A stretch of 29,596 bases of DNA, taken from UHGV virus genome UHGV-0100673. One strand, written 5' to 3'. The notes under the pieces were generated by a model. It was not told the DNA's origin, made no database searches, and saw only the letters and a program-made list of their open reading frames with translations. A program made the position numbers and the translations under genes. Of this stretch, positions 24,690-25,010 are shown one piece after another. The DNA is from a virus. Every line of letters starts with the position of its first letter. Position 1 is the first letter of the stretch.

Positions 24690-25010
24690 CAAAGATTTCA
24701 TTCCGGTTACTAACCTGACTGGCTTGTCGTTAAATTGAACAGGTGGAGTGAGCTTTTATTTTGAGCAGTACGGCGTATGGCACATGCGCCGATAGCGGTC
24801 TGGATACGTTTAAGGTGCACCCTCCCTTGCTCGGGCAAACGAACCAGGTAGCCGGAATGTGCAAGTCGAGCGGTTTTATTCCGCGCACGGGGATTCACCA
24901 TCCCGGCGATTCGGTGTGACGCCTCGGAAGAGACGAGGGTACAACGATGAGAGCATTTATGGAGCCGCGACAAAGTGTGGCGCCTTAACAGGCTAAGTGC
25001 TCTCAGCGTT

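Follow-up and report, generated by a model that had tools for sequence, protein, structure and literature searches.

Antitermination by the put RNAs of phage HK022, the closest described counterpart of the RNA reported here, works in cis and depends on the zinc-binding domain of the RNA polymerase beta' subunit. A put RNA measures ~70 nucleotides (nt) and comprises two stem-loops; located immediately behind the early promoter PL, it needs no partner to act on RNA polymerase (PMC9378689). For lambdoid phages that lack N and share the same early-left genes, Casjens and colleagues envisaged such a mechanism, without naming an element responsible for it (PMC12315714). How these N-less lambdoids carry their early transcripts beyond terminators is an open question in print, for which we present a concrete candidate, found in a 29,596-nt stretch of viral DNA (UHGV virus genome UHGV-0100673, hereafter the window, to which all coordinates refer unless stated). 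The segment under study (24700-25010, + strand) lies directly ahead of a tRNA-Arg(UCU) gene and contains a conserved structured RNA of ~245 nt, hereafter the element.

The element resembles put in being a cis-encoded RNA located just downstream of a repressor-controlled PL in N-less lambdoids, with terminators and early genes beyond it, and in that no dedicated protein gene is linked to either of them. It differs from put by its size and complexity, with a 173-nt core, seven to nine helices and a pseudoknot, by its single copy per genome where put forms a PL/PR pair, and by its occurrence outside lambdoids (phage P1 and Uetakeviruses), its own antitermination being conjectural. BLAST gave 86 records with similarity to the element; HK022 does not figure among the 60 that were listed, and the counts of that output do not name it. 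A covariance model of the element gave no match on HK022 24000-30000, a weak negative, since this stretch is probably devoid of PL/putL.

With regard to the boxB-boxA-boxC signals of lambda nut sites and ribosomal RNA (rrn) leaders, the element occupies the place of nutL. The 3' strand of its last helix, P8 (UGCUCUC, or UGCUCUUU in some copies), together with the GUUGUGG that follows (24996-25014), loosely recalls the succession of boxA (UGCUCUUUAACAA, also given as UGCUCUUU) and boxC (UGUGUGGG) in the leader of the E. coli rrnH operon (L157, ~228-270). By contrast with boxA, which is single-stranded, the boxA-like bases of the element covary with GAGAGCA and appear helical; the spacing is 3-4 nt instead of ~17 nt in rrnH, and the copies of phage P1 and L161 are devoid of the boxA/boxC-like part. 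Because these bases covary as a helix, we consider the resemblance as a lead only.

Other phage RNAs provide further points of comparison. GOLLD, ROOL and the stable RNAs C and D of phage T4 are all adjacent to tRNA genes, GOLLD and ROOL reaching 600-800 nt. The element is similarly a conserved and ornate phage non-coding RNA found beside tRNA genes without a linked protein partner, but it is much smaller than GOLLD and ROOL, has no Rfam match to either of these two and no homology found to the T4 RNAs, belongs to phages of Enterobacterales and goes together with promoters under operator control. The C4 RNAs of phages P1 and P7 and the CI RNA of phage P4, immunity RNAs matured by RNase P, are also phage regulatory RNAs, with ends set by tRNA-like features. 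However, the C4 clan models do not match the region of the element, and C4 is a 77-87 nt antisense RNA directed at a phage-specific target, whereas the invariant parts of the element are identical across phages of differing immunity.

Comparative evidence for a structured RNA

The window corresponds to a phiV10/epsilon15-type (Uetakevirus) prophage of E. coli, whose tested region is 100% identical to E. coli strain PK6. A first-pass annotation, made from the letters alone, had described a structured, GC-rich segment starting at 24700, which it took for either the long leader of a tRNA precursor or a non-coding RNA in its own right. Conservation starts in fact sharply at 24770, the preceding nucleotides (24689-24769) forming a less conserved leader, and the comparative data make it very probable that 24770-25010 (+ strand) is one copy of a real, conserved, structured and pseudoknotted non-coding RNA (Table 1).

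The + strand folds with a minimum free energy of -99.6 kcal/mol (z = -3.06 against shuffles, 0/200 of which were as good). A hand-built model comprising helices P1, P2, P3, P5, a pseudoknot of the P5 loop, P7 and P8 was evaluated on 21 diverse full-length copies (alignment A2), and its core on a second alignment (A3) that includes the copies of phage P1, BUCT708 and mEp390 and copies fetched with a different anchor. Pairing was compared with controls in which the 3' partners were slid, and five measures with 500 shuffles. Paired cells amounted to 93.8% in A2 against 29-43% when slid, and to 96.8% for the core in A3 against 29-41%. Changes on both sides affected 14 pairs (59 cells) in A2 and 11 pairs (48 cells) in A3. 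Not one of the 500 shuffles reached the observed value on four of the five measures in either alignment, the fifth, a count of further pair types, being reached by 67/500 (A2) and 12/500 (A3). The comparative alignment advised by the first-pass annotation thus yielded helices with compensatory changes beyond the controls, across both related and unrelated phages.

Support differs from one helix to another. One pair of the P1 hairpin alternates between G-C and A-U (10 versus 11 sequences in A2, 13 versus 9 in A3), and the strand can be read from its conserved U-G and G-U pairs: they would be A-C mismatches on the - strand, so that the RNA belongs to the + strand. A covariance model of the core (R1) gave a single strong match in the window, on the + strand (149.6 bits, E = 2e-44), against just 5.6 bits (E = 2.9) on the - strand. 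Helix P2 shows C-G replaced by U-A in 6-7 sequences, and G-C replaced by A-U or by C-G elsewhere, while a rare variant of the near-invariant 19-mer (GGUAACCGG) converts a U-G pair of P2a into U-A. The two perfect hairpins already noticed in the segment, GGGAT-TCACC-ATCCC and CCTCG-GAAGAGA-CGAGG, are present and correspond to the conserved helices P5 and P7, both of which display compensatory changes in other phages (P7 has 3 pairs changed on both sides, its stem being CCUCG/CGAGG, CCUGG/CCAGG or GCCGG/CCGGC). The pseudoknot covaries from CACC/GGUG to AACC/GGUU in 3 sequences. P8, 93% paired, shows compensatory replacements of G-C by A-U (7 sequences) and of A-U by C-G (5 sequences), and encloses a variable insert (24958-24995) whose length ranges from ~40 to >100 nt in other A2 copies. 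P3 is weakly tested, being 98.5-100% paired with C-G to U-G as its sole variation; P2a, P3 and all but one of the four pairs of the pseudoknot show little or no variation and are compatible with the model rather than proven. A consensus pairing of GGAAUGUGC with the 3' end, produced by RNAalifold, was rejected in favour of P8 for the compensatory support of the latter. The P8 inserts of two copies (L009 and L006) contain hairpins with canonical T-loop sequences (CUGGUUCAAUUCCAG and GUCCGUUCAAUUCGGAC), as if tRNA fragments had been captured.

The 19-mer is exact in 9/9 full copies found by BLAST independently of it, and among the loci fetched through the P1-hairpin anchor only 5 full copies have an altered 19-mer, with one base changed in each. 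Two open reading frames (ORFs) overlap the segment, of 52 amino acids (aa; + strand) and 87 aa (- strand). Both are artefacts, as the first-pass annotation, which had named a conserved frame among homologues as counter-evidence to its proposal, had anticipated for ORFs on the opposite strand: across 21 homologues no such frame was found, both candidates containing stops and the lengths differing by 0, 1 or 2 modulo 3. A protein-coding gene was consequently rejected, and since stops and frameshifting indels interrupt these frames in most homologues, the hypothetical proteins annotated over the element in some records (mEp460_037, mEp390_036 and Tyrion gp54) can also be considered as artefacts.

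Table 1. Features of the window in and around the conserved RNA
Feature	Position	Strand	Description
Portal gene	22683-24362	-	GC 0.515
gp3-like gene	24377-24583	-	68 aa
Divergent control region	between gp3-like gene and segment		AT-rich; promoter region 24584-24699, GC 0.293
Putative early promoter	24652-24680	+	Consensus -35 TTGACA (24652-24657), 17-nt spacer, weak -10 TACCTT (24675-24680); by eye
Repressor-operator palindrome	24674-24688		TTACCTTTCAGGTAA; overlaps putative -10
5' leader, less conserved	24689-24769	+	Hairpin 24703-24722; alignment A1
Core of conserved RNA, P1-P7	24770-24942	+	173 nt; minimal unit kept in phage P1 and L161
P1 hairpin	24771-24791	+	CGGCGUAUG, loop GCA, CAUGCGCCG; 97.9-98% paired
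P2	24796-24854	+	CGGU-CUGG (24796-24803) with CCAG (24844-24847) and GCCG (24851-24854); encloses variable branched insert
Near-invariant 19-mer	24847-24865	+	GGUAGCCGGAAUGUGCAAG; BLAST copies and different-anchor fetch
P3	24865-24907	+	GUC (24865-24867) with GGC (24905-24907); encloses P4 and P5
P4, variable hairpin	24870-24884	+	GCGG-UUUUAUU-CCGC; inside P3
P5 hairpin	24890-24904	+	GGGAU-UCACC-AUCCC; 3 pairs changed on both sides
Pseudoknot	24896-24899 with 24913-24916	+	P5 loop CACC with GGUG; 100% paired
P7 hairpin	24922-24938	+	CCUCG-GAAGAGA-CGAGG; heptaloop conserved
P8 closing stem	24942-25011	+	CAAC (24942-24945) and GAGAGCAUU (24949-24957) with AGUGCUCUC (24996-25004) and GUUG (25008-25011)
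tRNA-Arg(UCU)	25011-25087	+	CCA encoded; ARAGORN; Rfam tRNA 73.3 bits
Conserved hairpin	25090-25111	+	AUCACG-CCUAAGGAC-CGUGAU; between tRNA and first terminator
Intrinsic terminator T1	25131-25172	+	14-bp stem then CUUUUU; terminator scan
Intrinsic terminator T2	25246-25273	+	GCCCAC-UUCA-GUGGGC then U7; terminator scan
Second operator palindrome	25288-25302		TTACCTTATGGGTAA; just upstream of cargo ORF
Cargo ORF	25335-26225	+	AT-rich, GC 0.334; without Pfam match
TerL	26249-27718	-	GC 0.539

BLAST searches revealed that the element is conserved at 70-83% identity in unrelated phage groups. These include lambdoid phages (mEp460, cdtI, 2H10, Ayreon, mEp390 and Stx2c, Stx2a and Stx2k phages), phages of the phage-plasmid type (P1, P7, D6, SJ46 and RCS47), other Uetakeviruses (Tyrion, PAT1 and SPN1S), Klebsiella phages, and one phage recorded as infecting Stenotrophomonas (BUCT708). 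A 178-nt core was present in 1,840/5,426 complete E. coli genomes; a single genome can carry as many as 4 copies, 554 of the places are on plasmids, and the RefSeq annotation over these copies was always 'none'. The RNA thus goes unannotated in about a third of the complete genomes of E. coli, while being carried by the model phage P1 and by Shiga-toxin (Stx) phages. In addition, an exact-match scan with the 19-mer as DNA (GGTAGCCGGAATGTGCAAG) retrieved >120 viral contigs as well as 24 stretches from species-representative genomes, nearly all from Enterobacterales. The exact 19-mer occurs in two metagenome-assembled genomes labelled Oscillospiraceae and Bacillota (L141 and L153), which are probably mis-binned contigs given that all other hosts belong to Enterobacterales.

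The Rfam scan advised in the first-pass annotation did not assign the segment to any family. At the gathering threshold, Rfam 15 matched only tRNA, C4 and isrK in the window, with no match in 24700-25010; at E <= 10 over 24300-25400 it returned nothing credible for this segment, the sole match being ZEB2_AS1 (16 bits, - strand), and the mEp460 copy of the element likewise matched no family. The 19-mer and its complement, as DNA or RNA, appeared in no full text of the literature searched, and the literature on prophage structured RNAs, phiV10, put-like RNAs, early-left operon RNAs and P1 ban contained no description of the element. It is hence undescribed in Rfam 15, in RefSeq annotation and in the literature searched, the coverage of which leaves out most subscription-journal papers, so that an earlier description is possible. 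The family is new within the class of phage early-leader and tRNA-linked RNAs, and its breadth, together with its tie to repressor-controlled promoters, goes beyond what the first reading had perceived. Even if the mechanism proposed below is wrong, this well-supported structured RNA family would be worth an Rfam entry, which would put an end to the spurious 'hypothetical protein' calls over the element.

Promoter side, tRNA side and reduced copies

The putative early promoter of the window is located like the PL-like promoters found upstream of the element in mEp460 and mEp390. The operator-like palindrome that the first-pass annotation had placed ahead of the segment proved to be real, since the motif TTACC-N5-GGTAA occurs 7 times in the window (at 5523, 5903, 6955, 24674, 25288, 28347 and 28365) versus 0.47 expected, and the epsilon15 site homologous to the copy at 24674-24688 is annotated 'repressor, lysogeny'. 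Such scattered palindromes suggest that one repressor acts on many promoters, including beside structural genes; C1 of phage P1 likewise controls many scattered promoters. The 5' leader that follows contains a degenerate copy (~24745-24767) of a module, GGAGYGCGCUUUCAGGUGUG, seen upstream of the element in Tyrion and epsilon15, and the epsilon15 BLAST match covers 24723-24805, beneath a feature annotated 'RNaseIII'.

The promoter side was inspected in one or two representatives for each of four immunity types. The interval between the cI stop codon and the element of mEp460 can be identified as OL/PL, because it contains two further copies of TTGC-N7-GCAA, the operator motif present at OR. BUCT708 and mEp390 have different operators in the same arrangement of OL and promoter followed by the element, and in all three phages the element lies just downstream of PL, OL-type operators and a promoter being found between the cI stop codon and the element. 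More broadly, among ~125 loci, the element is immediately preceded by a same-strand gene for a cI-like repressor in ~63, and the layout is that of Uetakeviruses in ~36. For the copy of phage P1, which we take to be C1-controlled from what is known of the ban operon, there is no C1 operator within 1.5 kb. Judging from the promoter regions of the representatives examined, the RNA appears to be made first from a promoter under repressor control, and not to be a lysogen-expressed moron.

On its 3' side, the element adjoins tRNA-Arg(UCU) without any spacer (25010/25011) and is therefore physically a tRNA 5' leader, as had been proposed. The region was found in 27/27 of the tRNA-Arg(UCU) loci called by ARAGORN in related phages, and its absence where the tRNA is present, named beforehand as an argument against it, is not what we observed. 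It is nevertheless an independent non-coding RNA too, since it occurs without a tRNA in most lambdoid phages and lies in phage P1 on the 3' side of a different tRNA; it is not present only with, and because of, a tRNA, as would be an ordinary tRNA leader. The motif ...AGUGCUCUC-AGC-GUU directly precedes either tRNA-Arg(UCU) (27 loci, including the window) or a tRNA-like module beginning with (U)GUGG and ending with CCAC(A), often followed by A-CCA, and behind most copies of the element no tRNA is detectable by ARAGORN. The module of mEp460 is predicted to fold into a cloverleaf-like four-way junction with a T-like arm adjoining the acceptor stem, and is recognised by neither ARAGORN nor Rfam, while BUCT708 has no such module. 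Diverse tRNA-like modules occupy the same slot in L001 (3240-3375), L004, L018, L040, L069, L081, L094 and L106; their acceptor-like stem, UGUGGUG...CACCACA, measures 7 bp and in many cases precedes A-CCA, none is called by ARAGORN, and that of L094 displays canonical D and T arms and a long insert. These slot modules could be decayed tRNAs or purpose-built handles for RNase P.

Beyond the tRNA, the conserved hairpin at 25090-25111 is found behind the tRNA-like module in L040, L081 and L069 and directly behind the element in BUCT708. T1 is homologous to the terminator located behind the element in mEp460, and T2 is retained in epsilon15 and Tyrion. Counted with a stricter finder, an earlier permissive one having given a high background, strong terminators were found downstream in 66% of distinct loci versus 14-18% in the upstream or antisense controls, the first of them at a median of 326 nt from the 19-mer.

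Several copies are reduced. A natural deletion in epsilon15 (L005, 2049-2120) has left only the first ~53 nt of the element, i.e. the P1 hairpin and AGCGGUC, the rest of the element, the tRNA and T1 being lost and the remnant fused to the sequence ahead of T2; an 'RNaseIII' site is annotated in this record just upstream of the remnant and partly overlapping it. The copies of phage P1 and L161 possess only helices P1-P7, without P8, and the former lies 14 nt on the 3' side of tRNA-Ile, with no terminator before ban.

A candidate early antiterminator and its rivals

We tentatively propose, with a probability of roughly 35-40%, that the element is a cis-acting antiterminator of early transcripts, which would fulfil the role of HK022 put without kinship to it. 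Once the phage repressor is lifted, the RNA would be made first and would fold on the nascent transcript, where its invariant single-stranded parts would bind conserved host machinery, with the elongating RNA polymerase as the likeliest partner. The polymerase would become resistant to the terminators standing between the early promoter and the early genes, as it does with put or N/nut, in phages that have no N, and cleavage by RNase P at the tRNA or tRNA-like junction (25010/25011) would define the 3' end. Cis antitermination fits best because the PL transcripts of N-less lambdoids must cross strong terminators to reach the early-left operon, and because the RNA is the only conserved thing upstream of these terminators. 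A host target would be more plausible than a phage-specific one, since the invariant unpaired segments are common to phages of differing immunity.

The N/nut system itself was not recognised, neither as an N-like gene nor as boxA with boxB: on the basis of annotation only, mEp460 and Stx2a_1447 have no N, and all their early-left genes, up to xis and int, lie beyond the element and terminators. The first proteins downstream of the element have either no Pfam match or DUF2303, which was the only family found among neighbouring proteins and is uninformative. In the Shiga-toxin 2a phage Stx2a_1447 (L171), the element lies in a 778-nt unannotated gap (5166-5943) that separates cI from the first of the early-left genes; the first 20 kb (int to stx2) include Q and the ileZ-argN-argO tRNAs but no annotated N.

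A more ambitious version, which we regard as doubtful, would see in the element an RNA-only early antiterminator of a new class, without kinship to put, which replaces N in many lambdoids including the Stx2 phages of E. coli O157 and was also borrowed by phage-plasmids of the P1 type and by podoviruses of the epsilon15/phiV10 type; the 19-mer and the pseudoknot would form the surface that reprograms the host RNA polymerase, and RNase P, recruited by the attached tRNA-like stem, would free the RNA from the transcript. If the element is an antiterminator, effects on the induction, excision and early gene expression of Stx phages would be expected.

Several points weigh against antitermination. 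This step is a pure inference from sequence, and a strict consensus scan of 24350-25400 recovered no promoter, that of the window being therefore a putative one. HK022 has both putL and putR, whereas nhmmer and the covariance model found one match each in the complete genome of mEp460 and in the window, so that a PR-side copy is lacking. There would be little to antiterminate in the window, given the separate operator of the cargo gene (25288-25302) and the convergent orientation of TerL; epsilon15 is viable with all but ~53 nt of the element lost; P8 is missing in phage P1 and L161, and phage P1 has no terminator before ban. Furthermore, the exact junction with a tRNA or tRNA-like module would suit a processed, free RNA better than a polymerase-bound one, and ~245 nt with a pseudoknot is far larger than the ~70 nt of put.

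In the main rival, promoter, element, tRNA or tRNA-like module and terminator constitute a self-contained gene, from which RNase P would free a stable, trans-acting RNA of ~245 nt that binds or mimics a host component during early lytic growth, for takeover or anti-defence, in the manner of the T4 stable RNAs co-transcribed with tRNAs or of the tRNA-adjacent GOLLD and ROOL. The zero spacer between element and tRNA, the closure of the unit by terminators, and the persistence, in copies without a tRNA, of a module resembling a cloverleaf, in which a T-like arm adjoins a 7-bp acceptor stem and A-CCA is often encoded, are all in line with this possibility, as are the separate operator of the cargo gene in the window, a contig with two tandem copies, the invariant 19-mer, which points to a conserved partner in trans, and the dispensability of the element in epsilon15, expected of an accessory gene. 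We nonetheless find it somewhat unlikely, since in N-less lambdoids the cassette stands between PL and every early-left gene, where a terminator-bounded gene would silence the operon, and since the pairing of the leader in P8a reaches position -1/+1 of the tRNA, a configuration that RNase P would not favour from general knowledge of its substrates. No linked partner protein gene is apparent either, the neighbours being variable, and an antisense search within the window with the P8 insert, the 19-mer and the whole element gave only two 11-mers as complementarity of >=11 nt, which is about chance level, while none involving the 19-mer was found with the E. coli rrnH operon (16S, 23S, 5S and spacer tRNAs). 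The complex conserved fold, with its invariant unpaired segments and pseudoknot, and its promoter-proximal position upstream of terminators could also evoke a signal-sensing leader, akin to a riboswitch or an attenuator, in which a ligand (metabolite, ion, tRNA or protein) would set the stop at T1/T2 and gate lytic development; moreover, AUCACGCC (25090-25097) resembles the 3' strand of T1 (AUCACCGCC), making alternative pairings possible. Such a leader is improbable, because the terminators lie >=120 nt downstream, past the whole tRNA or tRNA-like module, unlike the expression platforms of classical riboswitches, the AUCACG hairpin is missing in mEp460, and there is no hint of a ligand; neither a known aptamer fold with a platform overlapping the terminator nor any Rfam riboswitch or T-box match, even at E <= 10, was found.

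The two remaining explanations would deprive the element of a function of its own as an RNA. That it is a mere tRNA 5' leader or processing signal, or the spacer of a decayed tRNA array, could account for its contact with tRNA-Arg(UCU) in 27 loci, its position 14 nt behind tRNA-Ile in phage P1, the degenerate tRNA-like sequences often found in the slot behind it, the T-arm-like hairpins within some P8 inserts, and the recurrence of P8-like stems followed by GUUGUGG as repeated spacers. It is very improbable, however, given that the element, with its invariant 19-mer and compensatory changes, is far better conserved than the tRNA slot, which is decayed or missing in most copies and absent in BUCT708, and that ordinary tRNA leaders are short and unconserved across phage families. 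A small protein-coding gene, or a site acting at the DNA level in protein binding, recombination or packaging, is the least credible of all: besides the overlapping ORFs and the hypothetical proteins of some records, it could draw on the junction motif GUUGUGG, which recurs at module boundaries and could mark recombination points. Besides the broken reading frames, neither coding nor a duplex-DNA site explains compensatory substitutions in helices or the tolerance of G-U on one strand only, so that this explanation appears largely refuted already. Cis-acting antitermination remains the reading that we prefer.

Repeated units and neighbouring features

Repetition of the element or of its parts was also observed. 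A viral contig (L023) contains two tandem cores on the - strand (3992-4154 and 4788-4959; 105.5 and 144.8 bits), ~800 nt apart. The Klebsiella phage SopranoGao, a Lastavirus of 61.6 kb, carries the element (L128, 2438-2960) near its genome end, behind the lysis genes and with its own promoter-like sequence, in a stretch where we read no sign of temperate genes. Its element is followed by a tRNA-like module, then by a second P8-like stem with GUUGUGG and another module, which indicates that the P8/tRNA-like unit can repeat.

The GC content of the segment, highlighted in the first-pass annotation, is indeed higher than that of the cargo gene (0.537 versus 0.334), and reaches 0.572 over 24768-25010. 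It loses its value as a distinctive signal when compared with the window as a whole (0.496), because the portal and TerL genes have similar values and the cargo and promoter flanks low ones: the segment is backbone-like between AT-rich flanks, and its GC-richness is by itself no anomaly. The cargo ORF encodes 296 aa, hydrophobic in the N-terminal part and, over a long C-terminal part, rich in Lys/Glu and coiled-coil-like; with its own operator directly upstream, it could be an exclusion or defence moron. Elsewhere in the window, an isrK Hfq-binding RNA (5954-6029, 77.6 bits) adjoins a C4 antisense RNA (6054-6139, 79.2 bits), the pair (5954-6139) corresponding to an antisense immunity module of the P1/P7 type, flanked by three of the operator palindromes (5523, 5903 and 6955).

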